A DNA stretch of 64,000 nt from Escherichia coli (GTDB taxonomy: Bacteria > Pseudomonadota > Gammaproteobacteria > Enterobacterales > Enterobacteriaceae), in NCBI RefSeq assembly GCF_003018115.1, contig NZ_CP027457.1, one strand, 5' to 3'. Both the position numbers and the translations under genes were made by a program. Positions 38,985 to 64,000 of this stretch are shown one piece after another (the stretch's first letter is position 1; each line of letters begins with the position of its first letter). Under the pieces are notes generated by a model, which saw nothing but the letters and a program-made list of their open reading frames with translations, ran no database searches and had not been told where the DNA came from.

Positions 38985-39016
38985 AAAAAAATACCGGCAT
39001 AACGCCGGTATTTTTA
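38985..39016 (-). terminator. bidirectional rho-independent terminator downstream of opgH
   Basis: Perfect 10-bp stem AAATACCGGC/GCCGGTATTT with 5-nt loop, flanked by A-run and T-run. Confidence 0.7.
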
Positions 39017-39032
39017 TTGGCTCGTTGTTTTT

Positions 39033-39133
39033 GCCAGATGCGACGTGAACGCCTTACCCAACCTACAAAATCTTGCAAAATCAATAAATTGCAGGAACGA
39101 TGTAGGCCTGATAAGCGTAGCGCATCAGGCAAC
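39033..39133. repeat. REP-like palindromic units
   Basis: GATGTAGGCCTGATAAGCGTAGCGCATCAGGCAA and a degenerate REP copy between the opgH stop and the terminator. Confidence 0.6.
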
Positions 39134-39140
39134 TACGTTT

Positions 39141-43323
<4,183 letters not shown>

Positions 43324-43604
43324 TCAGCACGCTGGCTCATGGATTAAGCACCTGATTGCAACCGTTTTCACTTTCCGTGCTTCTCCTAAAGACAGAAGCA
43401 TCGACTTCGTGTAGGGTTTGCCAGCAAATTTATTTATCAACCGTCTTACAGACGCTTCCATTCTGGTTAGTGGTAGCGGTGATGCTATGCATAAAAACTT
43501 GAAGCCTGCGCCTGGCGCGGTCAGGTCGGTGTCGCTATGGCAACAAGCCTAAAGGCATAACCCGACAGGGATAAGACGAAAAATCCGAGATTAGTTAACC
43601 ATAT

Positions 43605-44762: not shown

Positions 44763-44769
44763 GCCGCGT

Positions 44770-46200: not shown

Positions 46201-46726
46201 CTCCTTGTTGGGTAAGGAGTCTTTCGTAGAGGTGGGCGTTTTCTTCATCATAACAGACAAAGTATACCTGTTCGGGTAAAGCGTGACGGGTAATAAATTC
46301 TGAAACGGTTTTAACTGCGATTTCAGCCGCTGCCGCACGAGGGTAACCATAAACCCCAGTACTGATTGCAGGAAAAGCCACTGACGTATAGCTGTTTGCC
46401 GCCACCAGTCGCAGGCTATTCAGATAGGCATCCTGCAAAAGCTGGTCTTCGTTTTGTTCACCACCACGCCAGACTGGCCCGACGGTGTGTACTACGGCTT
46501 TAGCGGGAAGATCGCCTGCAAGCGTAATAACGGCATGCCCCGTAGGGCAATCGCCCTGCTGTTGCCTGACTTTTAAACAGGCATCCAGCAGGGCCGGACC
46601 CGCTGCGCGATGAATGGCCCCATCGACGCCGCCGCCTCCCATTAATGACGGATTAGCCGCATTCACAATCACATCAACGGCCAGTTTGGTAATATCACCC
46701 TGCACAACATGAATACGCGTTTTCAT
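46193..46726 (-). CDS. ymdB: O-acetyl-ADP-ribose deacetylase (macrodomain)
   Basis: 177-aa [46 protein letters not shown]... Confidence 0.92.
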
Positions 46727-46820
46727 AACGCCTCCTTACACCTTCTTGTTTCTTAAGTGTACAGCAGGCTTTTTGGTTAAATCGCATTTTTCTGCTCAGC
46801 AACGTGCGTTGTTCAGAAAC

Positions 46821-47585
<765 letters not shown>

Positions 47586-47643
47586 ATTCTTCTCCCGAAA
47601 AAAAACAGGGCTTGCGCCCTGTTTCTGTAATACAAATGATGTA

Positions 47644-48099
47644 TTAGTACTGATGAGCGGTCGCGTTGTTACCAAAGCCAACCTGAGTCACGTTGACGGA
47701 GGAATTAGATGCAGTCTGGTCAACTGCAGCACCGTTGCCACCACCGAACTGTTTAACAGTCATTTCAGAATTTTTGCCGTTCCACTGATCAAGAGTGGCG
47801 CTGTTACCGAAGCCACGTTGGGTCAGATCGATTGAGCTGTCATCTGAGCCCTGACCAACATCTGCACCATTACCACCGCCATGCTGGGTAATAGTCAAGT
47901 CAGAGTTACGGGCATCAGTTTGCAGAGCAAGTGCAGAGTTACCGCCACCGTACTGGTAAATGTTCAGCTCTGAATTTGGGCCGCTATTATTACCGCCACC
48001 ACCGTGGTTACCGCCGCCGCCGTACTGAGGAACAACACCTGCCAGAGCGCTACCGGAGAATACGATTGCTGCAATTGCTGCTACTTTTAAAAGTTTCAT
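47644..48099 (-). CDS. csgA: major curlin subunit
   Basis: 151-aa ORF MKLLKVAAIAAIVFSGSALAGVVPQYGGGGNHGGGGNNSGPNSELNIYQYGGGNSAL... with five S-X5-Q-X-G-X-G-N-X-A-X3-Q repeats. Confidence 0.97.
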   Translation of the reverse strand: MKLLKVAAIAAIVFSGSALAGVVPQYGGGGNHGGGGNNSGPNSELNIYQYGGGNSALALQTDARNSDLTITQHGGGNGADVGQGSDDSSIDLTQRGFGNSATLDQWNGKNSEMTVKQFGGGNGAAVDQTASNSSVNVTQVGFGNNATAHQY

Positions 48100-48139
48100 G
48101 TAAAACCCCCATCGGATTGATTTAAAAGTCGAATGGAAA

Positions 48140-48595
48140 TTAACGTTGTGTCACGCGAATAGCCATTTGCGACTGTCTCTGCACTACAATTGCCGTTTTT
48201 TGAGTACCATACTGTGTAATATTTGCTTTATTACCAGAACCTTTCTGGATAATCATCGCAGTATTACCATAAGCACCTTGCGAAATACTGGCATCGTTGG
48301 CACTGCCCGCCTGATCAATATATGCAAGGTTATAATCTCCTGTCTGGTCAATCTTTGCCCGGTTGCTACTACCTTCTTGCGCAACAACCGCCAAAAGTTT
48401 TGAGCCTCCCTGCCGTAACTGAGCACTATTATTAGTCCCAGCTTGACCAATTATGGCTGCCTGATTAAATGAAGACTTACTCAATTCATTTACCGCGAAG
48501 TTATATTCTGAATTAGCTAAATCATAACCTGCTGCGGCTGCAATCCCAGGCGCACCCAGTATTGTTAACATCATAAATAACAATTTGTTTTTCAT
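48140..48595 (-). CDS. csgB: minor curlin subunit / nucleator
   Basis: ORF 48140-48622; start at MKNKLLFMMLTILGAPGIAAA. Confidence 0.95.
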   Translation of the reverse strand: MKNKLLFMMLTILGAPGIAAAAGYDLANSEYNFAVNELSKSSFNQAAIIGQAGTNNSAQLRQGGSKLLAVVAQEGSSNRAKIDQTGDYNLAYIDQAGSANDASISQGAYGNTAMIIQKGSGNKANITQYGTQKTAIVVQRQSQMAIRVTQR

Positions 48596-49348
48596 GTTGT
48601 CACCCTGGACCTGGTCGTACATTTAAGAAATTAAATCATTTCAACTTGGTTGTTAACGCAACCTGTATTTTGTTAACGCTGCGTTACGATGGAAAGTATG
48701 TCTGCGGAAATATTTTTAATAACTCACCCGCGCGTTGTATTTTTCTTTTTTTGTTCATACCAAAGTATTAAAACCCACGTAAATACGCTGTTATCTACGC
48801 AAAAAATATTTTGTTTTCTTTTAAATCTCCGTTTTCCGCTAGCAAAAAACACCAGACAGTCATTCTTCTTGCCCGTCGCTGATTGCTGCGATATGTCTTG
48901 CGCACAAGCCGTGACAAACCTCGTCTTTTTGCAGTAAAAAATTGTCCACGGAGGTGTGGAGAAAAAACAAGAACGTTTTACATGACGAAAGGACTACACC
49001 GAAATATTTTTTATATGCATTATTAGTAAGTTATCACCATTTGTATGATTTTTTAAAATTGTGCAATAAAAACCAAATGTACAACTTTTCTATCATTTCT
49101 AAACTTAATAAAACCTTAAGGTTAACATTTTAATATAACGAGTTACATTTAGTTACATGTTTAACACTTGATTTAAGATTTGTAATGGCTAGATTGAAAT
49201 CAGATGTAATCCATTAGTTTTATATTTTACCCATTTAGGGTTGATTTATTACTACACACAGCAGTGCAACATCTGTCAGTACTTCTGGTGCTTCTATTTT
49301 AGAGGCAGCTGTCAGGTGTGCGATCAATAAAAAAAGCGGGGTTTCATC
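48596..49348. promoter_or_regulatory. csgB-csgD divergent intergenic regulatory region
   Basis: ~750-bp AT-rich non-coding region between divergent curli operons; known multi-factor control region, individual sites not resolved by eye. Confidence 0.7.
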
Positions 49349-49999
<651 letters not shown>

Positions 50000-50003
50000 A
50001 GCC

Positions 50004-50393
50004 ATGAAACGTTATTTACGCTGGATTGTGGCGGCAGAATTTCTGTTCGCCGCAGGGAATCTTCACGCCGTTGAGGTAGAAGTCCCGGGATTGTTAACTG
50101 ACCATACTGTTTCATCTATTGGCCATGATTTTTACCGAGCCTTTAGTGATAAATGGGAAAGTGACTATACGGGTAACTTAACGATTAATGAAAGGCCCAG
50201 TGCACGATGGGGAAGTTGGATCACTATAACGGTGAATCAGGACGTTATTTTCCAGACTTTTTTATTCCCGTTGAAAAGAGACTTCGAAAAAACTGTCGTC
50301 TTTGCACTGATTCAAACTGAAGAAGCACTAAATCGTCGCCAGATAAATCAGGCGTTATTAAGTACGGGCGATTTGGCGCATGATGAATTCTAA
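50004..50393 (+). CDS. csgE: curli secretion specificity factor
   Basis: 129-aa [50 protein letters not shown]... Confidence 0.93.
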
Positions 50394-50417
50394 ATAAAAA
50401 ATTGTTCGGAGGCTGCA

Positions 50418-50834
50418 ATGCGTGTCAAACATGCAGTAGTTCTACTCATGCTTATTTCGCCATTAAGTTGGGCTGGAACCATGACTTTCCAGTTCCGTAA
50501 TCCAAACTTTGGTGGTAACCCAAATAATGGCGCTTTTTTATTAAATAGCGCTCAGGCCCAAAACTCTTATAAAGATCCGAGCTATAACGATGACTTTGGT
50601 ATTGAAACACCCTCAGCGTTAGATAACTTTACTCAGGCCATCCAGTCACAAATTTTAGGTGGGCTACTGTCGAATATTAATACCGGTAAACCGGGCCGCA
50701 TGGTGACCAACGATTATATTGTTGATATTGCTAACCGCGATGGTCAATTGCAGTTGAACGTGACAGATCGTAAAACCGGACAAACCTCGACCATCCAGGT
50801 TTCGGGTTTACAAAATAACTCAACCGATTTTTAA
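50418..50834 (+). CDS. csgF: curli assembly component
   Basis: 138-aa [41 protein letters not shown]... Confidence 0.93.
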
Positions 50835-50860
50835 GCCCCAGCTTCATAAGGAAAATAATC

Positions 50861-51694
50861 ATGCAGCGCTTATTTCTTTTGGTTGCCGTCATGTTACTGA
50901 GCGGATGCTTAACCGCCCCGCCTAAAGAAGCCGCCAGACCGACATTAATGCCTCGTGCTCAGAGCTACAAAGATTTGACCCATCTGCCAGCGCCGACGGG
51001 TAAGATCTTTGTTTCGGTATACAACATTCAGGACGAAACCGGGCAATTTAAACCCTACCCGGCAAGTAACTTCTCCACTGCTGTTCCGCAAAGCGCCACG
51101 GCGATGCTGGTCACGGCATTGAAAGATTCTCGCTGGTTTATACCGCTGGAGCGCCAGGGCTTACAAAACCTGCTTAACGAGCGCAAGATTATTCGTGCTG
51201 CACAAGAAAACGGCACGGTTGCCATTAATAACCGAATCCCGCTGCAATCTTTAACGGCGGCAAATATCATGGTTGAAGGTTCGATTATCGGTTATGAAAG
51301 CAACGTCAAATCGGGCGGGGTTGGGGCAAGATATTTTGGGATCGGTGCCGACACGCAATACCAGCTCGATCAGATTGCCGTGAACCTGCGCGTCGTCAAT
51401 GTGAGTACCGGTGAGATCCTCTCCTCGGTGAACACCAGTAAGACGATACTTTCCTATGAAGTTCAGGCCGGGGTTTTCCGCTTTATTGACTACCAGCGCT
51501 TGCTGGAAGGGGAAGTGGGTTACACCTCGAACGAACCCGTTATGCTGTGCCTGATGTCGGCTATCGAAACAGGGGTCATTTTCCTGATTAATGATGGTAT
51601 TGACCGTGGTCTGTGGGATTTGCAGAACAAAGCAGAACGGCAGAATGACATTCTGGTGAAATACCGCCATATGTCGGTTCCACCGGAATCCTGA
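50861..51694 (+). CDS. csgG: curli secretion channel lipoprotein
   Basis: 277-aa ORF MQRLFLLVAVMLLSGCLTAPPKEAARPTLMPRAQSYKDLTHLP... Confidence 0.95.
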   Translation: MQRLFLLVAVMLLSGCLTAPPKEAARPTLMPRAQSYKDLTHLPAPTGKIFVSVYNIQDETGQFKPYPASNFSTAVPQSATAMLVTALKDSRWFIPLERQGLQNLLNERKIIRAAQENGTVAINNRIPLQSLTAANIMVEGSIIGYESNVKSGGVGARYFGIGADTQYQLDQIAVNLRVVNVSTGEILSSVNTSKTILSYEVQAGVFRFIDYQRLLEGEVGYTSNEPVMLCLMSAIETGVIFLINDGIDRGLWDLQNKAERQNDILVKYRHMSVPPES

Positions 51695-51732
51695 CAGATA
51701 AAAATGCCAGAATTAATAATCCGGCATTTACT

Positions 51733-51762
51733 GTTTAAGCGAAAGCGTGAGTGCCCCTCACG
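51733..51762 (+). terminator. terminator after csgG (bidirectional with ycdZ)
   Basis: GCGTGAG-TGCCC-CTCACGC hairpin followed by TTTATTTTT. Confidence 0.65.
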
Positions 51763-52249
51763 CTTTATTTTTGATTTCCTGCTCACGGTGAGCCGTCTTT
51801 GCACTACGCGCCGCCAGCCACAGGCCGCTGTTTTTCATTGCGTAACCAAATACCAGCCCAAGCGCCAGCGAAGGTAACACCAGTTTCCAGTCACCCTGCC
51901 CGGCAAACGTCGCGCATGCGCCTATAAACGTCCCCGGAACAAATGAAAGCAGCAGCTGTTTGGCCTGAATACACATCAGAAACGCGACAATACCGGTTAT
52001 GACATAACCGAGAATTTCCAGATGTGGCGTCAGTGCACTACCGTAAATAATGACCATCGCCCACACCACGCCACTAAGCAGGGTTGCAGCGGAGATCGCC
52101 AGCCCTTTCAGCCCACCTTGCGGGCAAGCAAAGTAGGCCGTACAGCCCAGGAAGCCCGCCCAGCTTAGTAAGCCCAGGGAAACAGCCACCCATCCCCAGA
52201 TACCGGAGAGAATGCCTGTTGTGATTGCAATAGAGAGAAGTATGTTCAT
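51758..52249 (-). CDS. ycdZ: DUF1097 inner membrane protein YcdZ
   Basis: ORF 51758-52297; start at MNILLSIAITTGILSGIWGW; hydrophobic throughout. Confidence 0.85.
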   Translation of the reverse strand: MNILLSIAITTGILSGIWGWVAVSLGLLSWAGFLGCTAYFACPQGGLKGLAISAATLLSGVVWAMVIIYGSALTPHLEILGYVITGIVAFLMCIQAKQLLLSFVPGTFIGACATFAGQGDWKLVLPSLALGLVFGYAMKNSGLWLAARSAKTAHREQEIKNKA

Positions 52250-52350
52250 GCCGCGCATGATAGCAGAAAACGCGGCCATGAATGAGATCGAGCACACATT
52301 TTATGCAACAACAAATTATCAGTTGCAGTTATGAGTGACGTAGATCACAT

Positions 52351-52905
52351 TTACTCTTCAGAATCCTCTTCCAGCTCGTCCCACATTGCACTAATGGCAT
52401 CACGGGTTAGCGGTGCCATGGTGCGCCAGAAAGGCGTGGTTGCATGGGCCTCCACTTTGCCAAGGAACGCGCCACACCAGGGTACCAGATACTCACTGAA
52501 CAGTGTTTCCAGTGCTTCGCTCTCATCTTCCGTTGACTGATCTTCCAGCCAGGAAGCCGCGAGCAGCAATGTGCCGATGTGATCGGCTGGCGTATCTGCT
52601 AATGGCATCCCTCGCTCAGAAAGAAAAGCGCGCACTTCCGCTTCCGTTGCGTCCTCAACCCATGCGCTACGATATGGCGGCACGGCACATTCATCGCCGA
52701 TAAACAACGCATTGTAATCGGCAGAGACTTGCGTCATATCACAGCTTTTCTGCAAACGTGTCAGCAACTCATCCTGCTCCAGTGGCCAGTTCGCAGCCAG
52801 TTTCCCCTCACGAATCAGGGTAAACAGCGGCACCAGTAAAGGATCTTGCGGTTGGCGGTAATAGAGCGAACCCAGCACACGACAGAGGATAGAAAACTCG
52901 TTCAT
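52351..52905 (-). CDS. ycdY: TorD-family chaperone for YcdX
   Basis: 184-aa ORF MNEFSILCRVLGSLYYRQPQDPLLVPLFTLIREGKL... Confidence 0.9.
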   Translation of the reverse strand: MNEFSILCRVLGSLYYRQPQDPLLVPLFTLIREGKLAANWPLEQDELLTRLQKSCDMTQVSADYNALFIGDECAVPPYRSAWVEDATEAEVRAFLSERGMPLADTPADHIGTLLLAASWLEDQSTEDESEALETLFSEYLVPWCGAFLGKVEAHATTPFWRTMAPLTRDAISAMWDELEEDSEE

Positions 52906-52928
52906 TAATATATTTCCATTACTAGTAA

Positions 52929-53666
52929 TTAAAGGTCTGCAAATTCCGCAATCGGTGCCATACCGCGAGATTCAAGGAAGTTCAGTAAGCGGCGCGGAGA
53001 AACATTCAAAATGCGCTCTGGCGGAAAATCTACCGCGTCGAGGATTTTAAGACACTCTTCAAATTCCCCCAGGGTAAACGCGGTGTGAGAATCCGAGCCT
53101 AATGCAACCCAACCTCCAGCATCACGTACCGCTGCGGCTACCGCACGACAGTTGTCTTCACTGCCCTTACGTGAGTGTAAAAATGAGGAATTATTGATTT
53201 CCAGCGCCACCTGATGTTTCGCGGCTGCTTCAGCAACGGCTTTAACATCTATTTCATATTTCGGATTTCCGGGATGGCTTATTATATGCACATTGCCGCT
53301 GGCGATAGTGGCGATCATCGCTTGTGTATTGGTCGCTTTGTCATGTGGTGCAAAAACCGGCTCATGAAAACCGGCAATAATCAGATCCAGCGAGTCAAAC
53401 ATTTTACCGCTGCAATCAATTTCACCATCAACATTTTTAATGTTAGCTTCGATGCCGCGCAGGATCCCTACCCCATCAACCACTCGCGGCCAGATACGCA
53501 TGTTAATGAAGTGCCAGTGATGCGGCGCATCTTCCATATCCGGGCCATGATCGGTGATCGCAAAAAGTTTAATGCCCTTTTGTTTGGCCTGGGCAATGTA
53601 ATCACTCAATGTGCTATATGCATGTGTGCTGGCAACGGTATGCATATGAAGGTCGACGGGATACAT
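52929..53666 (-). CDS. ycdX: PHP-family zinc phosphatase YcdX
   Basis: 245-aa [56 protein letters not shown]... Confidence 0.92.
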
Positions 53667-53720
53667 AACTCTCTCCTGTATTCAATTCCCGCCAAGGATA
53701 GCAGGAATCCTGATGCTTTA

Positions 53721-54698
<978 letters not shown>

Positions 54699-54892
54699 TT
54701 ATCGTTATGATCTACAAAGGCCACCAGCATAACAAATCCGTGGTCGGTGGCAAAAAAAGCAGATTTCGCTTATTAAAACCACACATTGATTGAAGTTTGA
54801 ATAAACGCGCGATTTTTTAAAAAAGTTTGTTGACCTCAGGTCATGATTTCCCTAAATTAGCGCCCGTTCCAGCAAGACAGGAACGACAATTT

Positions 54893-54980
54893 GGTGAGGT
54901 GTCCGAGTGGCTGAAGGAGCACGCCTGGAAAGTGTGTATACGGCAACGTATCGGGGGTTCGAATCCCCCCCTCACCGCCA
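54893..54980 (+). tRNA. serX: tRNA-Ser (anticodon GGA), serX-type
   Basis: 88-nt GGTGAGGTGTCCGAGTGGCTGAAGGAGCACGCCTGGAAAGTGTGTATACGGCAACGTATCGGGGGTTCGAATCCCCCCCTCACCGCCA; long variable arm, encoded CCA; adjacent to ghrA. Confidence 0.97.
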
Positions 54981-54984
54981 GATT

Positions 54985-55021
54985 ATAAGCGCATGTTATT
55001 GTTTAACATGCGCTTTTTTAT
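54985..55021 (+). terminator. rho-independent terminator of the tRNA-Ser gene
   Basis: AAGCGCATGTT-ATTGTTT-AACATGCGCTT stem followed by TTTTTTATTTTT. Confidence 0.8.
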
Positions 55022-55129
55022 TTTTCCTTCCAGACAGTATGCCATCGGGTATGCCATCTGAAACCGGTTTATATGCCCCGCGATCATATCTTATCGGACA
55101 ATTTCCGATCTTTGAGCATACTGGCAAAG

Positions 55130-55971
55130 CTATACTGCCAGCATGTCAGGATAGTGTTTTGCGATAATATCATTCAGTCTGTCAACCAGTTCTGGTTTTC
55201 TGAACGTGATATGCGCGGAGCCCTTCTTAAAGTATCTGATGCTGAACATCTCATCTTCATAGTCCTCTTTTCCCTGAACAGATTGGATATGGTCATCCAG
55301 ATGAATGGTGATGTTTTCCCGGTTGTCGGGGATCGGTTTGCCGCTGAACAGGTGCAGCATTCTTTCCAGATCGGCAAGTCGATCGGCCTGTTGCCCGGTG
55401 ATAAGATGCCCCCCCACCGGTCCCACCTCACCAGATTGTTGACGATAATTTTACTGCCAAATTTGCAGGGTGAATTGGTTTTGTAATTCCAGCTCAGTCC
55501 CCTGAAAACGTTGATCACCCCTCGCTCAAACACTTCATCTTTGTTCTGGTGCAGTTGTTCAAACGTGCTCAGGATATTCGCTTCGCTGATTTCCGGAAAA
55601 TTATCGTACTCCAGTGACCGGTACCATGTATCACGGGCTTGTGCATCCATTAATGACAGCATCCCTGAACGTTGCATCAGGTCACGCCAGATTTCGCGGT
55701 CAAGGTTGTGGGTGATGGCTTTCATTGCGGTTTCCGGTTTCTCCATGAGCCAGCAGCCACAGCGAAAATCCTGTTTCATGGCCCAGTCCAGTGCGGTTTT
55801 ACCTCCGATGCTTTCCGCCAGCACCGAGATTTCTGCCAGTTGCCGGATAAGCGTGTCGATTTGCAGCAGTGTACTTTTTCGTACAGCCAGAATGTGGCGG
55901 ATACTGGTTGAGCAGATAACGTCCGTATGCCCGTTGACAACTTCCAGACGAGAGGCTGTGATATCAGACAT
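55130..55971 (-). pseudogene. uncharacterized island protein split by a -1 frameshift at a G7 tract (265-aa ORF 55174-55971 plus 98-aa ORF 55130-55426)
   Basis: Two overlapping same-strand ORFs switch frame at GGGGGGG (plus-strand C7, 55409-55415); an 8-G tract would give one ~330-aa protein; family not recognised. Confidence 0.6.
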
Positions 55972-55982
55972 AATCGATTATA

Positions 55983-57403
55983 TGAACGCATCCCGTTTGC
56001 AAAGGCATCCATTGTTCTGACATCGACGGTAGGTTGCAGCTTTATATCCGGCTTTATTGCAGCCCGGAAGCTGCGAGCCCCTATGTAATTCGCCGACTCA
56101 CGCCTCATTTCCTCAGCGGGCTTTAGGCCCAATCGATTATCCAGGTTTAGTGAGTCACGGTCTTACCTGTCTTTGTCATCACGCTGGCTGCCAGAGCAAC
56201 CTTTCTGCATTCACCCTTTTGTAAAGAGTTTATGTTTATCGGTATCAGCGATTAATCAGGCCTGATACTGACATGATTTTTGTCGTATTTACGTCCGTGA
56301 GCGGCTATTGCCCACACCGTTCGCGCCAGCTTGTTTGCCATTGCGACGATTGCCACGCTGGCCGGACGACGCTTTTTCAGTTCGGTTATCCATGGACCAG
56401 GTTCTTTGGTCAGTAATGCTGCCGCCCTTGCACCATGAATAAACAGGGTTCGCAGATATTTATCACCACGTTTGCTTATTCCCAGCAGGCGGATTTTTCC
56501 TCCTGAGCCTGTCTGTCTGGGCACCAGACCGATAAACGCGGCGAATTCCCGTCCCGACTTAAAGGCGGAGGCGTCTCCCATCGTGGCAACGGCAGCGGTG
56601 GCGATTAACGGCCCCACGCCTGGGATGTTCAGTAACCGCTGACAGGTTTCATTCTGTCTGGCTACCGCCTGCAACTGCTTCTCAATGTGGTCAAGATGTT
56701 CATCAAGTTCAGTAATTCGCTGATATTGTTCATCCAGCATGTTTATCAGGTAGAGCGGTAGCCGCTCCTTCAGACGCTCCAGGGCTTCCGGCACCTCCTT
56801 CGCCAAAGCAGCACGCCCCTTGTGCGTCGTTTCACCAAATTCCAGCAAGAGACCGTGAAGCGCGTTTATTTGTGCTGTCCTGAACTTCACCAGTTGCTGG
56901 CGCATTCGGTGTAACCCCAGCGTAGCCTGTTGCTCCTCGCTTTTAACGGCGACGGATTTTACCGGCTGCTGAACCGCCAGCCAGATGGCTCGGGCGTCCA
57001 TCACATCGTTTTTATTTCCCATCACGAATGCTTTGACGAACCGGCCTTTGAGTAATCTGACCTTATGTCCCAGTTTCTGAAGCTCACGCGCCCAGTGATG
57101 AGAACCCCCACAGGCCTCCATGCCGATAAGGCAGGGTTCACGGTTGCTGAAATATTCAAGGAATTTCTCACGCTTAACCTGCTTATCGATAATCTCTCCG
57201 GTATGTTCATCAACGAAATGCACCTGCATAAGATGTTTTGCAATATCAACCCCGACAGGGATATATTTCATGGTGTGGATCCTCCAGTCTGTTGGGAGCG
57301 AAACGCATCCCGTTGGGCACGATGATGCCGGAAATCTGCGGGGATCCACACTCATCTACTTAATCCCCGAGCGGCTCATTTCATAATGTTGGGATGCGTT
57401 CAT
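55983..57403 (-). mobile_element. IS110/IS1111-family insertion sequence (~1.42 kb)
   Basis: DEDD-type IS110-family transposase ORF bounded by a perfect 13-bp inverted repeat ATGAACGCATCCC (55983-55995) / GGGATGCGTTCAT (57391-57403); exact termini uncertain. Confidence 0.75.
56252..57271 (-). CDS. IS110-family transposase/recombinase
   Basis: ORF 56252-57355; start at MKYIPVGVDIAKHLMQVHFVDEHTGEI... typical IS110-family N-terminus, C-terminal LGISKRGDKYLRTLFIHGARAA region. Confidence 0.88.
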   Translation of the reverse strand: MKYIPVGVDIAKHLMQVHFVDEHTGEIIDKQVKREKFLEYFSNREPCLIGMEACGGSHHWARELQKLGHKVRLLKGRFVKAFVMGNKNDVMDARAIWLAVQQPVKSVAVKSEEQQATLGLHRMRQQLVKFRTAQINALHGLLLEFGETTHKGRAALAKEVPEALERLKERLPLYLINMLDEQYQRITELDEHLDHIEKQLQAVARQNETCQRLLNIPGVGPLIATAAVATMGDASAFKSGREFAAFIGLVPRQTGSGGKIRLLGISKRGDKYLRTLFIHGARAAALLTKEPGPWITELKKRRPASVAIVAMANKLARTVWAIAAHGRKYDKNHVSIRPD

Positions 57404-57484
57404 TACATTTCCTTTTTGCAGATAAATGAAAACGCCAGCCCTGTTCAGGCTGACGTCAGTGGAATAAAGTCTGGTGAGTGAGAT

Positions 57485-57682
57485 TCACCGGTTCTGGTGC
57501 AGAAGCTGCAGTTGGCGCAGGGTACGGATATCCTCCCCGGCCTGTTCAATACAGGGCAACAGTGCTGCCGAATCCGTTTTATCTTCATCGTTGTCAAAGA
57601 TAATCCCCGATTCGCAGTCGATATTGTCCTGCAGCCACGCAATCAGAATATCCAGTGCTGTTTCCGTGGTTAATGATTTCAT
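57485..57682 (-). CDS. small conserved island protein (DUF957/YeeW-like)
   Basis: ORF 57485-57727; start placed at MKSLTTETALDILIAWLQDNIDCESGIIFDNDEDKTDSAALLP... to avoid overlap with upstream ORF; family name from memory. Confidence 0.6.
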   Translation of the reverse strand: MKSLTTETALDILIAWLQDNIDCESGIIFDNDEDKTDSAALLPCIEQAGEDIRTLRQLQLLHQNR

Positions 57683-57693
57683 GTTGTTCCTGG

Positions 57694-58182
57694 TTACCAG
57701 TCGAAAGTGGGTAAATCCGGCAGACATTCGGCGCTGGCATCCAGATGAATGAGACTGACGCCATAACGTCGGGTAAGTGTGACAACCAGACGGCGGAACG
57801 TTTTTGACAGCCCCAGGCGTTTAAGCCGCAGAACCGGGTATGACCACGCACCGGTACGTAACAGATATCCGCTACCTGTGAAATGAATCCATTCTGATTC
57901 GCCAGTGTCATTCGTCTGATGTGACAGCGAATACAACCAGGCGTTGTCCTTTGCCGTGATATGCGCGGTACTGCAGCGTATGCCGGTCAGGGCAGCAAAT
58001 GGTGGCGTGCGCTCTGCTGATGTCCGGTCAGATTCATCAACAACACGAAGGGAGTAGCCATTGTCGCAGGCCACGTTAATCAGTTCAGCGAGATTAACAC
58101 CATCGACGTCAACGACAATTCGTCCCATGTTCAGCGCCTGCACGTTAACGCTGTCTGCTTCCAGCGTCAGGGCCAGTTTCAT
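57694..58182 (-). CDS. conserved island protein downstream of CbtA (DUF5983-like)
   Basis: 162-aa ORF MKLALTLEADSVNVQALNMGRIVVDVDGVNLAELINVACDNGYSLRVVD...; start overlaps cbtA stop (ATGA). Confidence 0.65.
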   Translation of the reverse strand: MKLALTLEADSVNVQALNMGRIVVDVDGVNLAELINVACDNGYSLRVVDESDRTSAERTPPFAALTGIRCSTAHITAKDNAWLYSLSHQTNDTGESEWIHFTGSGYLLRTGAWSYPVLRLKRLGLSKTFRRLVVTLTRRYGVSLIHLDASAECLPDLPTFDW

Positions 58183-58556
58183 TGTTTCGCCCCCGGATGT
58201 TTACCCAGGGTAATGTTATTTACCGTTCTGTAATTGTCGCGGGTCATCAGGCCTGTCGCCCGGCGGGCCCGGAGGATATCGATGCTGTTTATTAACTGAG
58301 AGTGGGTACAGGTGCTGAATCCCGGCTGGTCGGTACGCACCAGTGCGTATTTTTCCACGAGAAAGTTCACCGCATCGCACAGTGAAATGCCGGCCTCAAT
58401 ATGCTGCTCAATCACACGTTCATCAGCGAACGGTGTGTCATTCAGCGTAAGGCCGTAGTGCTGGTCCAGTAGTCGGGAGAGCAGTGTCTGCCAGATGGTG
58501 ACGGGAGACGGGCTGCGCGATGCCTCCCGTACGTGTGTATCGGGTAATGTTTTCAT
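58179..58556 (-). CDS. cbtA: type IV toxin-antitoxin system toxin, CbtA/YeeV family (cytoskeleton-targeting)
   Basis: 125-aa ORF MKTLPDTHVREASRSPSPVTIWQTLLSRLLDQHYGLTLNDTPFADERVIEQHIEAGISLCDAVNFLVEKYALVRTD... near-identical to remembered YeeV/YkfI/YpjF sequences. Confidence 0.9.
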   Translation of the reverse strand: MKTLPDTHVREASRSPSPVTIWQTLLSRLLDQHYGLTLNDTPFADERVIEQHIEAGISLCDAVNFLVEKYALVRTDQPGFSTCTHSQLINSIDILRARRATGLMTRDNYRTVNNITLGKHPGAKQ

Positions 58557-58645
58557 ACTGAAGATTTTCCTGATATGAGAGATTAAATTTTGAGGAGAGT
58601 GGTGCTGTAGCGCACCGGGCCGGAGCAGACGATTATTTCGGTGGT

Positions 58646-59014
58646 TTACTTTTTCGTTTCTGGCGTCGGATAAACAGCCATATAAACGTAACCACAGCTG
58701 CCGAGGGTGTCGGCTTCGCAGGTCAGCCCTCTGGCATACAGCGTGACGGTATGCTGATGGCTGGGGCTGAGTTCACCGCTGGTGAGCATGAGTTCCAGTT
58801 GTTTCATCAGCAGCGGAAAGGCCTGGTCCAGATGGTACGCATCCGCGTCGCTGAACCGGCCTCTGATACCGGCGCGGTCTGCAAGGTAATGCAACCGGTT
58901 ACCCTCCTGCACCAGACGTGCCCCAAAACAGGGCGTCACGGTGCAGGGTAGCCCCCACCAGGGGCGGTCGTTGTTATCGTCGGGATGCGTTGTCCCGGGG
59001 AGAGTGTCTGACAC
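58646..59014 (-). CDS. cbeA: type IV toxin-antitoxin system antitoxin, CbeA/YeeU family
   Basis: 122-aa ORF MSDTLPGTTHPDDNNDRPWWGLPCTVTPCFGARLVQEGNRLHYLADRAGIRG... Confidence 0.9.
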   Translation of the reverse strand: MSDTLPGTTHPDDNNDRPWWGLPCTVTPCFGARLVQEGNRLHYLADRAGIRGRFSDADAYHLDQAFPLLMKQLELMLTSGELSPSHQHTVTLYARGLTCEADTLGSCGYVYMAVYPTPETKK

Positions 59015-59093
59015 GATAAAATCCTCACAGAAAATTGGTTAAGAATGGTCCGGTGGTGGCGATAATTCTGCTCTTCTGAATGCCCTTCCAGAC

Positions 59094-59315
59094 TCAGTTC
59101 AGGGTGACGCTCATCAGCCGGACATACGGACCGAAACTGTCCTTACGGCGTTCTGCAAACACAGCCAGCACACCGGGAATATCCTGCACTTCACGGCCGG
59201 TATATGTATCCGTGCTACCGTGCCAGCGGTATTTACCGGTACAGAACGGAAAAAGACGGGATGCAGGATGCTGACGGTGAATACGCATGGCTTCACCACG
59301 GGGGATGATTTTCAT
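59094..59315 (-). CDS. DUF987 protein, YeeT-like
   Basis: 73-aa ORF MKIIPRGEAMRIHRQHPASRLFPFCTGKYRWHGSTDTYTGREVQDIPGVLAVFAERRKDSFGPYVRLMSVTLN. Confidence 0.85.
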   Translation of the reverse strand: MKIIPRGEAMRIHRQHPASRLFPFCTGKYRWHGSTDTYTGREVQDIPGVLAVFAERRKDSFGPYVRLMSVTLN

Positions 59316-59401
59316 GAGAATAGTCCTCCTGAATGTGAAAGTAAGAAACAGCTGAGAAAGAGAAACTGAAGTGATATGAAGGTGATTGTGACGGTGACGG
59401 G

Positions 59402-59893
59402 TTAAAGCAGTCCGTGTTCCGCAAAGGAGAAAACCTGGCTGCCACCGACTATCAGATGGTCCGGCACCCGGATATCCACCAGAGCCAGTGCCTGTACCAG
59501 ACGTTCCGTGATAAGGCGGTCTGCCTTGCTGGGTGTGACTTCACCGGACGGGTGATTGTGCGCCAGCACCACGGCAGCGGCATTGTGATACAGGGCGCGT
59601 TTAATCACTTCCCGGGGATGGACTTCCGTGCGGTTGATGGTGCCGGTGAAGAGGGTTTCACCGGCAATCAGCTGATTCTGGTTGTTCAGATACAGCACCC
59701 GGAATTCTTCACGCTCCAGTCCCGCCATGTTAAGAATCAGCCATTCCCGTGCCGCACGGGTGGAGGTGAAGGCCACGCCGGGTTCATGAAGATGGCGGTC
59801 CAGGGTTTTCAGGGCCCGCAGAATGAGACTGCGCTCGCCGGGCGTCATCTCTCCGGGCAGAAAGGAAAGCTGCTGCATTGTTCCTGCCTCCAT
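59402..59893 (-). CDS. RadC-like JAB-domain protein (YeeS/YfjY/YkfG family)
   Basis: 163-aa ORF with JAMM-like motif AVVLAHNHPSGEVTPSKAD; start may be internal Met (MQQLSFLPGEM). Confidence 0.85.
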   Translation of the reverse strand: MEAGTMQQLSFLPGEMTPGERSLILRALKTLDRHLHEPGVAFTSTRAAREWLILNMAGLEREEFRVLYLNNQNQLIAGETLFTGTINRTEVHPREVIKRALYHNAAAVVLAHNHPSGEVTPSKADRLITERLVQALALVDIRVPDHLIVGGSQVFSFAEHGLL

Positions 59894-60379
59894 TCAGTCG
59901 ATGATGCGCATAATGGCGCTGCATTCCGGATGCTGCAGGGCGTAATCCCGCAGCCGGTAATAATGGACCGTCATGGCATAACACTCCGTACGACAGGCAT
60001 GATGACTGTACGTCATCAGACAGGCAGCAATGCCGGCGGCTTCCGGACTCATTTCAGCGCGGTTACCGTTCATGGCATTGAACAGTACCCATTTTTCGTC
60101 ATCATCGTCATCCGGTTCAGGTGCCATAAATGCCCCGCCGTTGTTCAGGGTGTACAGATTCCAGATACCACCGCAGTAGTCTTCGCACAGACGGTCCATC
60201 CAGCCGAAAACACGGGGCTCCAGGGTCACCCACTGTGGAATGAGGCCAAAATGCTGCGGCCAGAAGCTGATGCGCTGTTCATCAGGGACTATGGTGGCAA
60301 CCAGCTGAGGCTGGTCATTCCCTGATGCAGCGGTTACGGAAACAGAAGGAGTGGTGGAATTATGCAAGACGGTTGTCAT
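59894..60379 (-). CDS. antirestriction protein (KlcA/ArdB-like; YfjX/YafX family)
   Basis: 161-aa ORF with acidic patch PEPDDDDDEKW; immediately upstream of RadC-like gene as in CP4 prophage remnants. Confidence 0.8.
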   Translation of the reverse strand: MTTVLHNSTTPSVSVTAASGNDQPQLVATIVPDEQRISFWPQHFGLIPQWVTLEPRVFGWMDRLCEDYCGGIWNLYTLNNGGAFMAPEPDDDDDEKWVLFNAMNGNRAEMSPEAAGIAACLMTYSHHACRTECYAMTVHYYRLRDYALQHPECSAIMRIID

Positions 60380-60470
60380 GAGATGATTCCTTATAAAAAG
60401 TAAATGAATGGAAGAAACCCCGGGGGAAGGGACAGACGTGAGTCAGAACTGCGCTTTCAGGGAAAAGGCA

Positions 60471-61289
60471 TCAGCACATGCTCTCCAGCAGCGTTTCAGC
60501 CATCACCCACAATGCGCGGTTGAGCTTAATATCGGTGTCGATGCTGTGAATGGCCCGGGTATGGATACGTTTTCCTCTGGCACTGCGACCGGAAATCCCG
60601 CCTTTCAGCATATTCTCCTGGATGGTCTGATAAGCACTCCACAGGTCCTTACCGTAATCCTCCCGGCGTCGTGGCGTCAGAATGTCGGCGGTGGTGACGG
60701 GCTGATGTTCGTCACCATAACGGTAAGTCAGTGCCGCCTGTGCCAGCGCCTGGCGTGCCGGTGGCGGCAGAATCAGCGACTGCATGGCATCACGTTTCTC
60801 TTCAATCCGGTCAAAAACCCCCACCACCTCGTAAGCACCTTCAATCACCCTGTCCACCACGTTTCCCCGGTGTGGCACCCGGACTTCTCCCAGCGACTGA
60901 CCGCAGACCAGGCCATTGGTGCAGATGGCACGAAAATATCCGGGTAACATCTGGTAGCTGGATGAACCGTCATGGGAGTTGAGCAGAATAATTTCAGGCA
61001 CATGCTGACCGGTTATCTGTCCGGCCCGCCGCAGACGCAGCATATGTTTGGTATATTCCCGGCGGCTCTGGTCGCGCACACGGGTCTGGCAGGCGAAGAA
61101 CGGCTGAAAGCCTTCCCGCTGCAGATTTTCCAGGACGGTGATGGTGGGAATGTACGCATACCGTTCACTGCGGGAGGTGTGCCGGTCTTCTCCAAAAATA
61201 CTCGGGACGTGGTACATCAGTTCTTCGCGTGTCAGTGGGCGCTCCCGACGGATCTGATTTACATGACCAAAACGACTGGCTAATTGCAT
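60471..61289 (-). CDS. DUF932-family protein (YafZ/YfjQ-like)
   Basis: 272-aa ORF MQLASRFGHVNQIRRERPLTREELMYHVPSIFGEDRHTSRSERYAYIPTITVLENLQREGFQPFFACQ...; family name from memory. Confidence 0.7.
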   Translation of the reverse strand: MQLASRFGHVNQIRRERPLTREELMYHVPSIFGEDRHTSRSERYAYIPTITVLENLQREGFQPFFACQTRVRDQSRREYTKHMLRLRRAGQITGQHVPEIILLNSHDGSSSYQMLPGYFRAICTNGLVCGQSLGEVRVPHRGNVVDRVIEGAYEVVGVFDRIEEKRDAMQSLILPPPARQALAQAALTYRYGDEHQPVTTADILTPRRREDYGKDLWSAYQTIQENMLKGGISGRSARGKRIHTRAIHSIDTDIKLNRALWVMAETLLESMC

Positions 61290-61329
61290 ACTTTGCTCCT
61301 TATGAATGAGTTAGCGGTATAAACGAAAA

Positions 61330-61357
61330 GGCCGCGTCTCCCGGAGAAGACGCGGCC
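61330..61357 (-). terminator. rho-independent terminator downstream of the DUF905-like gene
   Basis: Perfect 10-bp stem GGCCGCGTCT/AGACGCGGCC; minus strand then reads TTTTCGTTT. Confidence 0.65.
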
Positions 61358-61378
61358 TGATGGATGAAATGAAGACGT

Positions 61379-61671
61379 TTATTGCCTGAGAATTCCCTCA
61401 CTGGCGAGATACGGATTTAGCTGTTTTCCGGCATCAGATTCAAAATTCCAGCACCGCCAGCGCAACTGACCTTCAGCGTTGCGGATCACCAGACGAAAAT
61501 GCGTACCCGGGTCATCCTTGATAAACACATTGCGGTAAGCGGTTATGACAGCAACCGCCTGCCCGTATGAGAAAGATCCTTCAGCCAGGACATACTCTGT
61601 GTGTAACCCGGCATATCTGGTTTCTCCTGATAAATAGCCTCTGCCACAACGTATGGCAGAGGCTGAAGCAT
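61379..61671 (-). pseudogene. DUF905/YkfF-like small gene with apparent frameshift
   Basis: Frame A from ATG ([42 protein letters not shown]) shifts to frame B (...[60 protein letters not shown]), which carries the remembered HFRLVxR...WRxWNFExDAG signature. Confidence 0.55.
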
Positions 61672-61688
61672 GAAACTGACTTCAGGGA

Positions 61689-62144
61689 TCAGTTAACATT
61701 TTTTCCGGAAACGGTAATCAGCAGTGGATGGTAGTCCTGGGGATCGAAAACCGATAACGGCAGACTGACACGATGGCCGTTACTTTCTTCAGTTGCTTTA
61801 ATGATTTCGGTTGTGGCGACATTTTCCACGCACTCCGTTTCCAGAAATGCGTCTGTGGTTCGCGTGGCATTACTGTCACCAAAGGCTTCCGTTTCCATTT
61901 TTCTGGTCACCAGCGTCTGACCATATTTGTCTTTGAGTTGCAGAGTGATGGTGAGGGGGCCAAATCCTTCATAGTTTCCGCCATTATCCAGCCGGAACTG
62001 GTAGGCACAAATATTTCCCGGGAGCCATATCGTATCTGTATTGCGTATACTGATGTAACGTTGATCCTGTGCCCGGAGTGGGGCAGACCACGTTAACCCC
62101 AGAATGAAGGCGGTAATCATGCAGGTTTTGAACAGGTGAATCAT
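61689..62144 (-). CDS. secreted/periplasmic protein of unknown function
   Basis: 151-aa ORF with signal peptide MIHLFKTCMITAFILGLTWSAPLRA|QDQ; no recognisable motif. Confidence 0.6.
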   Translation of the reverse strand: MIHLFKTCMITAFILGLTWSAPLRAQDQRYISIRNTDTIWLPGNICAYQFRLDNGGNYEGFGPLTITLQLKDKYGQTLVTRKMETEAFGDSNATRTTDAFLETECVENVATTEIIKATEESNGHRVSLPLSVFDPQDYHPLLITVSGKNVN

Positions 62145-62219
62145 GGTATTTACCTCTCTGAGTCATGACGATGACACTGACAAATCAGGTGATAAAACGT
62201 AAAAGGCGCAGAATAGCCG

Positions 62220-63941
62220 TTATGCCGGTAACTCCGGGGGTAATGCTTCTTCCAGTCGGTTAACCATCTTGCCGAGATGGGATACATCATATTCCATGAC
62301 GGGGCGTTGCCTGATGATACTGACCACCAGTGGTTTGATTAACATATTGGTCGCGGCCCGTTGTTGTATACCGGCGGCGAAAATGATCTCCAGAGCATTC
62401 TGATCGATAACACGGGCCAGATTCGCGTTCAGATTTTCAATCTCATGTCCGGTCAGCAGGAAACTGCCGGCAAGCCATGTCACCTGCTCCTGAATCATTG
62501 CCAGAATTTTGACGCGATCTTCTTCAACCAGCGCTCCGGCAATTTTTCCTGATACAGCGGAGGCAATCATTCCCCCCAGAACACCGCCAACCACACGTCC
62601 TGTCAGTGCACCAAATGGTCCCAGTGGACTGAACAATATCCCGCCCGCCACTGACCCGACAGCACCACCTGCCACACCGGAAGATGCCACGGCAAGATTC
62701 CTGATGAACTGCGCACCGGAGATCCGTCCCCGCAACATTTTGATCATGTCAGGGCCGGTTGTGACAGCGACCAGTGCCAGAGATGTCACCAGCGTACCCT
62801 TCATCACTTTGTTCAGGGCACTGATATTTCCTGCACCGGTCCCCTTCTGAAGCGCCTGCCGGACAGTCGGGCTGGCCGTCGAAAAATCAATATGCTTCAG
62901 CATACCCTGAACAACACTGAGCCGGTGAAGTTGCTGGGTTGTGACGTAGACAGCCAGTGTGCGGGTGAAGGTTTTTCCTGCCTGGACAGCAGCTGTCTGC
63001 AGGGCAGCATCGCGATCGCCGGTGCTGAGCCAGAAGACCGATGCCGTCAGGGCAAAACTGATCCCTCCGGCCGCCAGACTGACAACCGCCCCCTCGGCAA
63101 TATCATAAGTGACCGATTCGATGGTCCCGAACCGGGTGATATTACGGGCCTGGGTATAAGTCAGATGTCCCCGACGAATCAGCCGGGACGCTTCTGCGGG
63201 ATCGGTTACACCGGGTACTTTACCTTCGCGGATCTTATTCTTCATGGTTTCCACAGCGCCGGCATACTGATCACGGGGGACTTCCAGTTGCATGGGACCA
63301 TGATTTCCCATGTAACGATACTGTCCGTTTTGTCCGTCGAATGCCGCACCGACGCTACGGGCTGCAGTTGAACAATATTTCGTCTGGATTTCTGTTCCGC
63401 TGACCAGTCTGTCTGCTCCATTTCTGGCATTATTATCACCGAGGATCCGTGCGTTTTTCAGACGGACTCTGTCGACAATATGGTTTCCCCGTTCAGCGGC
63501 AAACCCATGTCCCTGCCCTCCGGAAGCAAACATTTTCTCATTTGTACTCCAGGTTTCCGGCAGTTTCATGAGAATCAGACCATTCGCCGTTGCATCGGAA
63601 ATAAAACCGGTGTAAGAACGTTCATAAATGTCCTGACACAGTGTTTCTGTTTCGCGACAAAGAGAGGAGCAGTACCATTCCGGATCCGGCTTATGATTTT
63701 CCGGGGCATGATGTACTTCTGTCAGCCCGCAGGAGGCACAGATACGAAGCTCATCCACGTGGTGGAATGATACAAAACGGCGGCCTTCTGAAAAGGGGTA
63801 CCAGTCACCGCCGTCCAGGCAACGATCGAGAAAATCGTCATTCGCTTCCGGTGATAAATTCAGGCGGTTCCGGAAGAGGGTTTTCAGTTCATCAGGGGTA
63901 AATGACAGGCTCTCTCTCAGCTTTTCGTTGAAACCCGCCAT
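62220..63941 (-). CDS. large uncharacterized protein with N-terminal Cys cluster and C-terminal glycine-zipper membrane region (possibly YeeR/YfjW-like); reading frame stays open to the window end
   Basis: 573-aa ORF from first in-window ATG; frame continues without stop through 63942-64000, so true start may lie outside; GGAVGSVAGGILFSPLGPFGALTGRVVGGVLGGMIASAVSG segment. Confidence 0.65.
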   Translation of the reverse strand: MAGFNEKLRESLSFTPDELKTLFRNRLNLSPEANDDFLDRCLDGGDWYPFSEGRRFVSFHHVDELRICASCGLTEVHHAPENHKPDPEWYCSSLCRETETLCQDIYERSYTGFISDATANGLILMKLPETWSTNEKMFASGGQGHGFAAERGNHIVDRVRLKNARILGDNNARNGADRLVSGTEIQTKYCSTAARSVGAAFDGQNGQYRYMGNHGPMQLEVPRDQYAGAVETMKNKIREGKVPGVTDPAEASRLIRRGHLTYTQARNITRFGTIESVTYDIAEGAVVSLAAGGISFALTASVFWLSTGDRDAALQTAAVQAGKTFTRTLAVYVTTQQLHRLSVVQGMLKHIDFSTASPTVRQALQKGTGAGNISALNKVMKGTLVTSLALVAVTTGPDMIKMLRGRISGAQFIRNLAVASSGVAGGAVGSVAGGILFSPLGPFGALTGRVVGGVLGGMIASAVSGKIAGALVEEDRVKILAMIQEQVTWLAGSFLLTGHEIENLNANLARVIDQNALEIIFAAGIQQRAATNMLIKPLVVSIIRQRPVMEYDVSHLGKMVNRLEEALPPELPA

Positions 63942-64000
63942 GTTTCTTTCATACCAGGCATTGTCCAGTAGCCAGTTTCCGTCTGCCAGTTCAAATTCCC

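Follow-up and report, generated by a model that had tools for sequence, protein, structure and literature searches.

The window, by which we mean the whole stretch of 64,000 nucleotides analysed here (Escherichia coli, contig NZ_CP027457.1), contains a single tRNA gene, an intact tRNA-Ser(GGA) at 54893-54980 on the plus strand, which was detected by ARAGORN and confirmed by Rfam (RF00005). Its sequence equals K-12 serX at every base and its neighbours are ghrA-ycdX-ycdY, which together identify it as serX rather than its paralogue serW. Homology to the empty site of K-12 breaks exactly past the CCA end, at the boundary 54980/54981, so that the island postulated at the 3' end of serX by the initial annotation is real and the comparison with K-12 that it proposed fixes the serX border of the insertion to the base. 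The insertion occupies the extreme 3' end of the gene and keeps the tRNA whole, a feature of the islands SRL-PAI, OI-43/48, SpLE1 and PAI-CFT073-serX.

The serX junction and the adjacent genes

The final 14 bp of serX (54967-54980, plus strand), directly after which K-12 homology stops, represent the attL core CCCCCTCACCGCCA. Its reverse complement is TGGCGGTGAGGGGG, and the sequence equals the direct repeat published for OI-43/48 and SRL-PAI (PMC3064760). A second copy of the serX 3' end (last 14-30 nt, at most one mismatch) is absent from the window outside the tRNA itself, in line with the earlier inspection by eye. The island brings its own intrinsic terminator for serX (54987-55025, plus strand), which was recognized by a terminator scan and RNA folding and consists of a 12-bp stem, a 5-nt loop and a T run. 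It folds at -17.4 kcal/mol (z = -7.4), and none of 200 shuffled sequences performed as well. Rfam searches of the whole window returned no match for the island part except the tRNA. Further outward, the interval 55037-55100 (plus strand) is an att arm specific for islands at serX or serW, with candidate arm-type integrase sites, namely, the repeat GTATGCCAT at 55037 and again at 55049, i.e. with a spacing of 12 bp, and the motif TATCGGACA at 55092. Islands at other sites match the window only from about 55142 onwards.

Every island gene between 54981 and 64000 is located on the minus strand and points at the tRNA. The gene names are based on the RefSeq annotation of the identical DNA in E. coli 2014C-4135 and a few PHROG matches, while most of the small island proteins have no match in NCBIfam. 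The gene closest to serX is a DUF4942 pseudogene (55130-55971; 'DUF4942, frameshifted' in RefSeq), whose 1-bp frameshift past about residue 186 was located by comparing its reading frames with those of strain 2313, whose copy is intact (281 aa). It is followed by an IS110-family insertion sequence of about 1.43 kb (55980-57407), which encodes a transposase at 56252-57271 or 57355 (NCBIfam NF033542, E = 8e-102) and is bounded by the 13-bp terminal inverted repeats ATGAACGCATCCC and GGGATGCGTTCAT. Its insertion point lies 9 bp upstream of where DUF4942 starts, and the IS segment is missing from the otherwise collinear island in strain 2313. Decay of the island within the window is limited to this frameshift and this IS insertion.

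The order continues with genes for DUF957 (57485-57682), DUF5983 (YeeW-like; 57694-58182), a CbtA-family toxin (58179-58556), a type IV antitoxin of the YeeU/CbeA family (58646-59014) and DUF987 (YeeT-like; 59094-59315), all named after RefSeq. Next are a RadC-family gene with a JAB domain (59402-59878; RefSeq and NCBIfam TIGR00608, 149.9 bits, above cut-off), an antirestriction gene (59894-60379; RefSeq and PHROG 10132 'anti-restriction protein', E = 3e-64) and a DUF932 gene (60471-61289; RefSeq and PHROG 12094, E = 4e-128). The outermost genes, again annotated by RefSeq, encode DUF905 (61379-61588), an IrmA-family protein (61689-62144) and a hypothetical protein of 838 aa, of which the window, ending within the gene, contains the C-terminal 593 codons (62220-64000). 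This last gene sits directly downstream of Ag43 in relatives, and it has the same place in PAI-CFT073-serX. The block from DUF932 to DUF957 and its reading direction towards the tRNA had been described correctly, but the DUF4942 pseudogene and the IS110 element, which lie closest to the tRNA, were left out. The observation that no integrase lies within 9 kb can be extended to the whole window: tblastn searches with five tyrosine integrases (the serX-island integrase, IntF, IntA, IntB and a 200-aa recombinase fragment, see below) revealed neither a gene nor a remnant in the 64 kb (best E = 0.27).

The complete island in strain 2014C-4135

Positions 54820-64000 of the window are 100% identical to E. 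coli 2014C-4135, with zero differences over 9.2 kb. This is the one genome with the identical island segment, and its complete island comprises 71,221 bp from serX to ycdU. Its ycdU end harbors the gene of a 405-aa P4-family integrase (Pfam domains Arm-DNA-bind_3, Phage_int_M and Phage_integrase) that reads into the island and is convergent with serX. The integrase is located 160 bp from a 14-bp repeat CCCCCTCACCGCCA (attR) that is oriented like serX and occurs as one copy at the ycdU border; beyond it, the native serX terminator, displaced to the far end of the island, is followed by K-12-like flanking sequence. Integrase and repeat are found about 62 kb past the point that matches the window end. 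The initial annotation had considered an inverted, decayed or rearranged island or an integrase beyond the window, and only the last option agrees with what is found in 2014C-4135; inversion and rearrangement find no support. It had also conceded that an integrase and an att repeat just outside the window in canonical orientation would reduce the gene order to a variant of the family. In substance this is the case, although the integrase of 2014C-4135 is remote and not in the tRNA-adjacent orientation.

The two island ends resemble each other. A pair of GTATGCCAT repeats with the same spacing and orientation, together with TATCGGACA, is present at the far end, where it precedes the integrase ATG by 22-42 bp, and the two arms have 18 8-mers in common compared with 1.1 in shuffled sequences (maximum 8). 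Judged by these paired repeats, both ends look like the two arms of a single attP, and GTATGCCAT is a candidate arm-binding site of the integrase.

The integrase is 98% identical to that of the O157:H7 island and shares, over its full length, 34% identity with IntA and 31% with IntB. A gene of the AlpA family near int is a candidate for the excision factor. The cargo includes a CDI locus (cdiBAI), lutABC, a type I restriction-modification system with DarTG, a dGTPase and Ag43, accompanied by four copies or remnants of IS66-family elements, of which three are arranged in tandem. Where the conserved module gives way to the defence cargo, roughly 15 kb away from serX, there is a 200-aa fragment of a tyrosine recombinase. 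Its assignment to the family of the island integrase was rejected, as the comparison showed the two to be unrelated.

Integrase and attR were read in 2014C-4135 only, the backbone of which is 1.3% diverged even though the shared 9.2 kb of the island is identical. The genome of the window probably possesses the same far end, as suggested by this identical relative. The alternative is a decayed remnant whose integrase end has been lost, for example by an IS-mediated deletion, so that the genome would harbor no island integrase anywhere. The far end is situated outside the window, the tRNA-proximal part of the island bears an IS insertion and a frameshift, the island of 2014C-4135 contains the IS66-family copies or remnants mentioned above, and IS-mediated internal deletions as well as the loss of the 5' (int) end have been documented for OI-43/48 (PMC3064760). 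However, the absence of any difference to the complete island over 9.2 kb implies that the two islands diverged from a common ancestor very recently. Furthermore, the junction of attR and int is retained in 1260 complete E. coli genomes, close to the 1336 of 5426 genomes (about a quarter) with the junction of tRNA-Ser and DUF4942. We accordingly regard a decayed remnant as improbable.

Related islands and the polarity towards the tRNA

Our favored interpretation is that the segment 54981-64000 is very probably the tRNA-proximal (attL) end of a ~71-kb island that belongs to the family of SRL-PAI, OI-43/48, SpLE1 and PAI-CFT073-serX. SRL-PAI from Shigella flexneri 2a, OI-43/OI-48 of E. coli O157:H7 EDL933 and SpLE1 of strain Sakai have entered serX or serW at the 3' end, as has the island here, and they carry the conserved TA/RadC block beside the intact tRNA. 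They have the 14-bp direct repeat TGGCGGTGAGGGGG and int at the ycdU/ser'X end, with the intact serX on the opposite side (PMC3064760). The int genes of OI-43/48 are 15 bp shorter (PMC3064760), and the 405-aa integrase of 2014C-4135 would fit the SRL-PAI form. Excision has been measured for OI-43/48 (PMC3064760) and requires int in SRL-PAI (PMC7545054); the copy in the window may be competent for excision. The cargo of these islands (resistance, fec, ter, ure or iha) differs from that of 2014C-4135. The combination of the conserved tRNA-proximal module with the family-specific att arm is present in the window.

Another example is PAI-CFT073-serX, whose gene order into serX is the same as here and recurs in the serX islands of UTI89, RS218 and IHE3034. 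It runs from GTPase, Ag43, the 838-aa ORF, IrmA, DUF905, DUF932, antirestriction, RadC and DUF987 to YeeU, CbtA, DUF5983, DUF957 and DUF4942 and ends at serX. It is collinear with the window at 87-95% nucleotide identity, also across the 150 bp that separate the tRNA from DUF4942, and its integrase is located at the far end, like that of the 2014C-4135 island. CFT073 contains IS200C and ISEc10 insertions where the island of the window has the IS110-family element; in contrast to 2014C-4135, its cargo comprises the S pilus and salmochelin, and ycdU is missing at its far end.

The roughly 15 kb closest to serX (DUF4942 to Ag43 and GTPase) could in principle be a separate element without integrase that was accreted in tandem to an unrelated, integrase-bearing island. 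The recombinase fragment in 2014C-4135 sits at just this distance from serX, and the conserved module does occur with different integrases at other tRNAs. But apart from attL and attR no internal att core (last 14-30 nt of serX, at most one mismatch) exists in the 71-kb island of 2014C-4135, the recombinase fragment shows no relationship to the island integrase and the attL arm next to DUF4942 has repeats in common with the int arm of the far end. Moreover, the islands of CFT073 and O157 have the same two ends despite their different cargo, which makes a tandem origin very hard to sustain.

The layout of the serX island is not confined to this family. The cryptic prophage CP4-6 of K-12 (thrW to intF) likewise starts with an intact tRNA, followed by a TA pair of the CbtA family, DUF987, RadC, antirestriction, DUF932 and a GTPase, all genes reading towards the tRNA. 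At its far end the integrase adjoins the pseudo-tRNA fragment ptwF and is divergently oriented, an arrangement classified as an 'OD' pseudo-tRNA-integrase pair (PMC2951348). IntF and the integrase of 2014C-4135 share only 21% identity over 168 residues of the catalytic domain (E = 0.013), and the tRNA and att core of CP4-6 differ from those of the serX island. Judging from these comparisons, the island of the window is not a member of the CP4-6/IntF lineage and has the layout alone in common with it. The proposal that the flipped layout is a property of one integrase lineage was discarded for the same reason: IntF is barely related to the serX-island integrase, and the layout thus recurs with different integrases.

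CP4-57 (ssrA-intA) and the leuX-intB element belong to the same integrase family as the 2014C-4135 island, including the N-terminal Arm-DNA-bind_3 domain. Their internal order (int, AlpA, DUF3987, cargo, GTPase, DUF932, antirestriction, RadC, DUF987 and TA) is also shared, but the integrase is located directly 3' of the tRNA or tmRNA in the same orientation with the TA block in distal position, and the polarity of the serX island is reversed. The classical P4-like integrase immediately 3' of the tRNA is absent here, as none is found in the 64 kb and that of 2014C-4135 lies 71 kb away. The expectation that an integrase adjoins its tRNA is valid for most elements, since more than 92% of the tRNA-integrase pairs in a published survey show the STI or OC arrangement (PMC2951348), but it does not apply to SRL-PAI, OI-43/48, SpLE1, PAI-CFT073-serX and CP4-6.

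A conceivable origin of the reversed polarity is a formerly classical island (tRNA-int...TA block) that was later inverted or rearranged, so that the distal block was brought to serX. This scenario, which appeals to the prevalence of adjacent pairs and to the P4-family relatives IntA and IntB at their tRNA or tmRNA with the TA block far away, is barely credible: two 14-bp cores in direct orientation bracket the whole island and host sequence resumes precisely after each, the paired repeats have the same orientation in both arms as expected for one attP, about 1300 genomes show the layout, islands with precise excision among them, and site-specific recombination cannot flip an island between direct repeats.

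The favored interpretation entails the following model of integration. A P4-family tyrosine integrase would recombine the attP of the island with the terminal 14 bp of serX, and the tRNA gene would stay intact because the crossover falls within these 14 bp. Relative to int, the 14-bp core of the serX family is oriented opposite to that of CP4-57 and other classical P4-like islands; for this reason int would come to lie beside the displaced copy of the core (attR, 'ser'X') near ycdU and the other side of attP beside the intact tRNA. The tRNA-side arm carries the conserved series GTPase-Ag43-...-DUF932-antirestriction-RadC-YeeT-CbeA/CbtA-DUF5983-DUF957-DUF4942 and provides serX with a new terminator straight after the CCA. 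The internal order would remain the usual one, from int via cargo to the TA block, all codirectional, and merely the polarity relative to the tRNA would be flipped.

Implications for annotation and a possible recent transfer

The layout at the serX side is an already known variant of this family, with nothing inverted, missing or new, and it raises no new biological question. It is a caution for annotation, as the adjacency of integrase and tRNA is the pattern of the majority and no rule: in islands at serX or serW and in CP4-6 at thrW, the tRNA side is occupied by the TA/antirestriction block and the integrase resides beside the displaced tRNA fragment. Heuristics that seek a tRNA-adjacent integrase would miss or mis-orient the island at the serX locus in roughly one in four E. 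coli genomes.

The comparison with 2014C-4135 also bears on the mobility of the island. The adjoining chromosome (50000-54819) differs at 65 sites (1.3%), and the switch from this diverged flank to the identical island falls within 75 bp of serX. The identity of the island over 9.2 kb next to a chromosome that is 1.3% different suggests a recent move from lineage to lineage, for which homologous recombination that happened to end at serX is an alternative to recent integration. CDI, DarTG, type I restriction-modification and the dGTPase are carried by the 2014C-4135 island, in which conjugation genes are not visible. We only tentatively propose that the ~71-kb island passed very recently from one E. 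coli lineage to another via site-specific integration and that it may represent a spreading defence and competition island whose transfer would depend on a helper.

The serX junction and the genes facing it

ARAGORN predicts a single tRNA gene in the window, and Rfam concurs: a plus-strand tRNA-Ser(GGA) gene spanning 54893-54980. It has the same sequence as serX of K-12, and its neighbors ghrA-ycdX-ycdY-ycdZ-csg identify it as serX and not as the paralogue serW. The alignment with the empty serX-ycdU site of K-12, which the initial annotation had proposed for delimiting the insertion, shows that homology ends at 54981, directly past the CCA. The other loci in the window, namely fab, rne, flg, mdo, csg and ghrA, belong to the ordinary core genome. 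A second copy of the last 14-30 nt of serX is absent from the 64 kb, and a tblastn search with five tyrosine integrases as queries detected neither an integrase nor a remnant in the whole stretch, in agreement with the initial statement that the tRNA lacks a neighboring integrase and a direct repeat of its 3' end.

All genes between 54981 and 64000 are located on the minus strand and oriented towards serX. Their names were taken from the RefSeq-annotated genes of E. coli 2014C-4135, the DNA of each gene being identical, and independent profile matches were additionally obtained for the transposase, RadC, the antirestriction protein and DUF932. The order from serX is a frameshifted DUF4942 gene (55130-55971), an IS110-family transposase within an element at 55980-57407, DUF957, DUF5983, the CbtA toxin, the YeeU/CbeA antitoxin, DUF987 (YeeT), RadC, the antirestriction protein, DUF932, DUF905, IrmA, and the 3' part of an 838-aa ORF extending to the window end. 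The TA/RadC/antirestriction block faces the tRNA as originally described and the genes listed at that time are present, but the DUF4942 pseudogene and the IS110 element nearest to the tRNA had been missed.

The decay of this island copy is modest. The DUF4942 gene exhibits a 1-bp frameshift past about residue 186 (its length is 842 bp, versus 843 bp for the gene of strain 2313); a frameshift is likewise annotated in the CFT073 copy. The IS110-family element (about 1.43 kb; 13-bp terminal inverted repeats ATGAACGCATCCC/GGGATGCGTTCAT) is located upstream of the DUF4942 gene, 9 bp from its start codon, and IS200C occupies the same short spacer in CFT073. These two insertions suggest that the spacer is an insertion hot spot.

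The complete island of strain 2014C-4135

Only one complete genome, that of 2014C-4135 (NZ_CP027310.1), provided a full-length match to positions 52000-64000. It is 100% identical to 54820-64000 without a mismatch, whereas the flank 50000-54819 contains 65 mismatches (1.3%), the last one at 54819; this makes 2014C-4135 a suitable proxy as regards the island, but not for the strain of the window. This sharp switch in divergence, within 75 bp of serX, documents the same island in two diverged chromosomal backgrounds and fits a recent acquisition by two lineages. Alternatively, it may represent a homologous-recombination breakpoint near serX, given that the other island boundary lies outside the window.

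The island of 2014C-4135 has a length of 71,221 bp and comprises, outward from serX, Ag43 and a YeeP-like GTPase, a 200-aa recombinase fragment, an anti-phage dGTPase, a type I R-M system with DarTG, several IS66 copies, a cdiBAI locus accompanied by several orphan toxin/immunity pairs, lutABC, an AlpA-family gene, a DUF3987 gene and a 405-aa tyrosine integrase adjoining ycdU. Of the cargo beyond the window, the recombinase fragment, the dGTPase, the R-M operon and the cdiBAI locus are contained in positions 36767-49001 and 22769-40139 of the stretches L001 and L002 of this genome. The 200-aa fragment, located where the conserved module adjoins the cargo, derives from a tyrosine recombinase unrelated to the island integrase; in the R-M operon darG and a frameshifted darT are placed between hsdS and hsdR. 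In window-equivalent coordinates the integrase would be located near 124.8-126.0 kb, about 62 kb beyond the window end. Of the explanations initially offered (an inverted, decayed or rearranged island, or an integrase beyond the window) only the last one holds, based on this proxy.

The last 14 nt of serX, CCCCCTCACCGCCA, recur upstream of the integrase gene, 160 bp from its start codon. This copy is oriented like serX itself and is immediately followed by the native serX terminator and then by K-12-like sequence to ycdU. Further copies of this core are absent from the 2014C-4135 island. The empty K-12 site (serX to ycdU; 5023-5584 of the K-12 stretch L003) contains three additional 181-bp units in tandem, each terminating in the final 19 nt of serX plus the native terminator, so that K-12 has four consecutive potential att cores. 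RefSeq designates such units 'RtT sRNA', and just one of them is kept at the displaced core copy (attR) of 2014C-4135.

Integrase and attachment arms

The domains of the 405-aa integrase (Arm-DNA-bind_3 / Phage_int_M / Phage_integrase) correspond to the P4-type architecture. The protein is 98% identical to the O157:H7 copy, shares 34% and 31% full-length identity with IntA and IntB, respectively, and is barely related to IntF; by its sequence it is a genuine P4-family enzyme.

A strong island-borne hairpin with a T run (54987-55025; -17.4 kcal/mol, z = -7.4) right past the CCA replaces the native serX terminator, which is now located at the far end. The ~150 bp between the core and DUF4942 harbor two GTATGCCAT repeats (55037 and 55049, 12 bp apart) and a TATCGGACA motif, and the far end contains a GTATGCCAT pair of the same spacing and orientation together with TATCGGACA, 22-42 bp upstream of the integrase ATG. 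Both arms have 18 8-mers in common versus 1.1 expected. The replacement terminator and the shared repeats favor the interpretation of the left end in the window as a real attP arm rather than a rearrangement scar. Tandem accretion of an int-less module beside serX is disfavored by the same repeats at both ends and by the missing internal core copy. The repeats are candidate arm-type Int sites and, lying over the region upstream of int, suggest that the gene may be subject to negative autoregulation, as demonstrated for IntS and IntF (PMC2951348). Similarity of the window to islands at other tRNAs starts only at about 55142, so that the 160 bp beside the tRNA (54981-55142), which are specific to serX/serW islands, represent the att-specific arm. 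Position 55142 is, approximately, a clean joint between this arm and a module common to islands with different integrases.

Polarity of the serX island

Perfect 14-bp direct repeats TGGCGGTGAGGGGG, corresponding to the last 14 bp of serW/serX and identical in Shigella SRL-PAI, have been reported for both ends of OI-43 and OI-48 in EDL933; the P4-family int (Z1559) is located at the ycdU/ser'X end, intact serX/ycdW at the opposite end, and OI-43/OI-48 and Sakai SpLE1 excise through recombination between the repeats (PMC3064760). Excision of SRL-PAI requires int (PMC7545054). TGGCGGTGAGGGGG is the reverse complement of our core. In CFT073 PAI-serX the integrase is located at the far end, as in the proxy, and the gene order into serX is exactly that of the window. 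Both polarities are present in K-12: CP4-57 exhibits the other one (ssrA-intA...TA block), while CP4-6 resembles the serX island, with thrW followed by the YkfI/YafW TA pair, RadC, antirestriction, DUF932 and GTPase, oriented towards the tRNA, and intF at the far end, 34 kb off. The ptwF-intF pair represents the rare 'opposite-divergent' tRNA-integrase shape, and shapes with the integrase beside the tRNA (STI, OC) account for more than 92% of pairs (PMC2951348), which explains the initial expectation for serX.

Of 5426 complete E. coli genomes, 1336 match at least 80% of a 608-nt probe for the tRNA-Ser/DUF4942 junction; the attR+int junction was counted in 1260. These near-equal counts, and the identity of the window segment with a complete island, make a decayed remnant without int unlikely in the strain investigated here. 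An inversion or rearrangement placing the TA block beside serX is contradicted by the direct orientation of the two cores, by the matching arms and by how widespread the layout is.

The internal order of the serX island (int, AlpA, DUF3987, cargo, GTPase, Ag43, DUF932, antirestriction, RadC, TA, DUF4942; all codirectional) is the classical one. It differs from classical islands only in how the 14-bp core is oriented with respect to int in attP. Because of this reversal, integration places int beside the displaced core copy, far from intact serX, and the conserved module beside the intact tRNA. The gene order at serX is a documented variant of the island family, already known from, e.g., CFT073 PAI-serX and OI-43/OI-48, an outcome that the initial annotation had itself envisaged.
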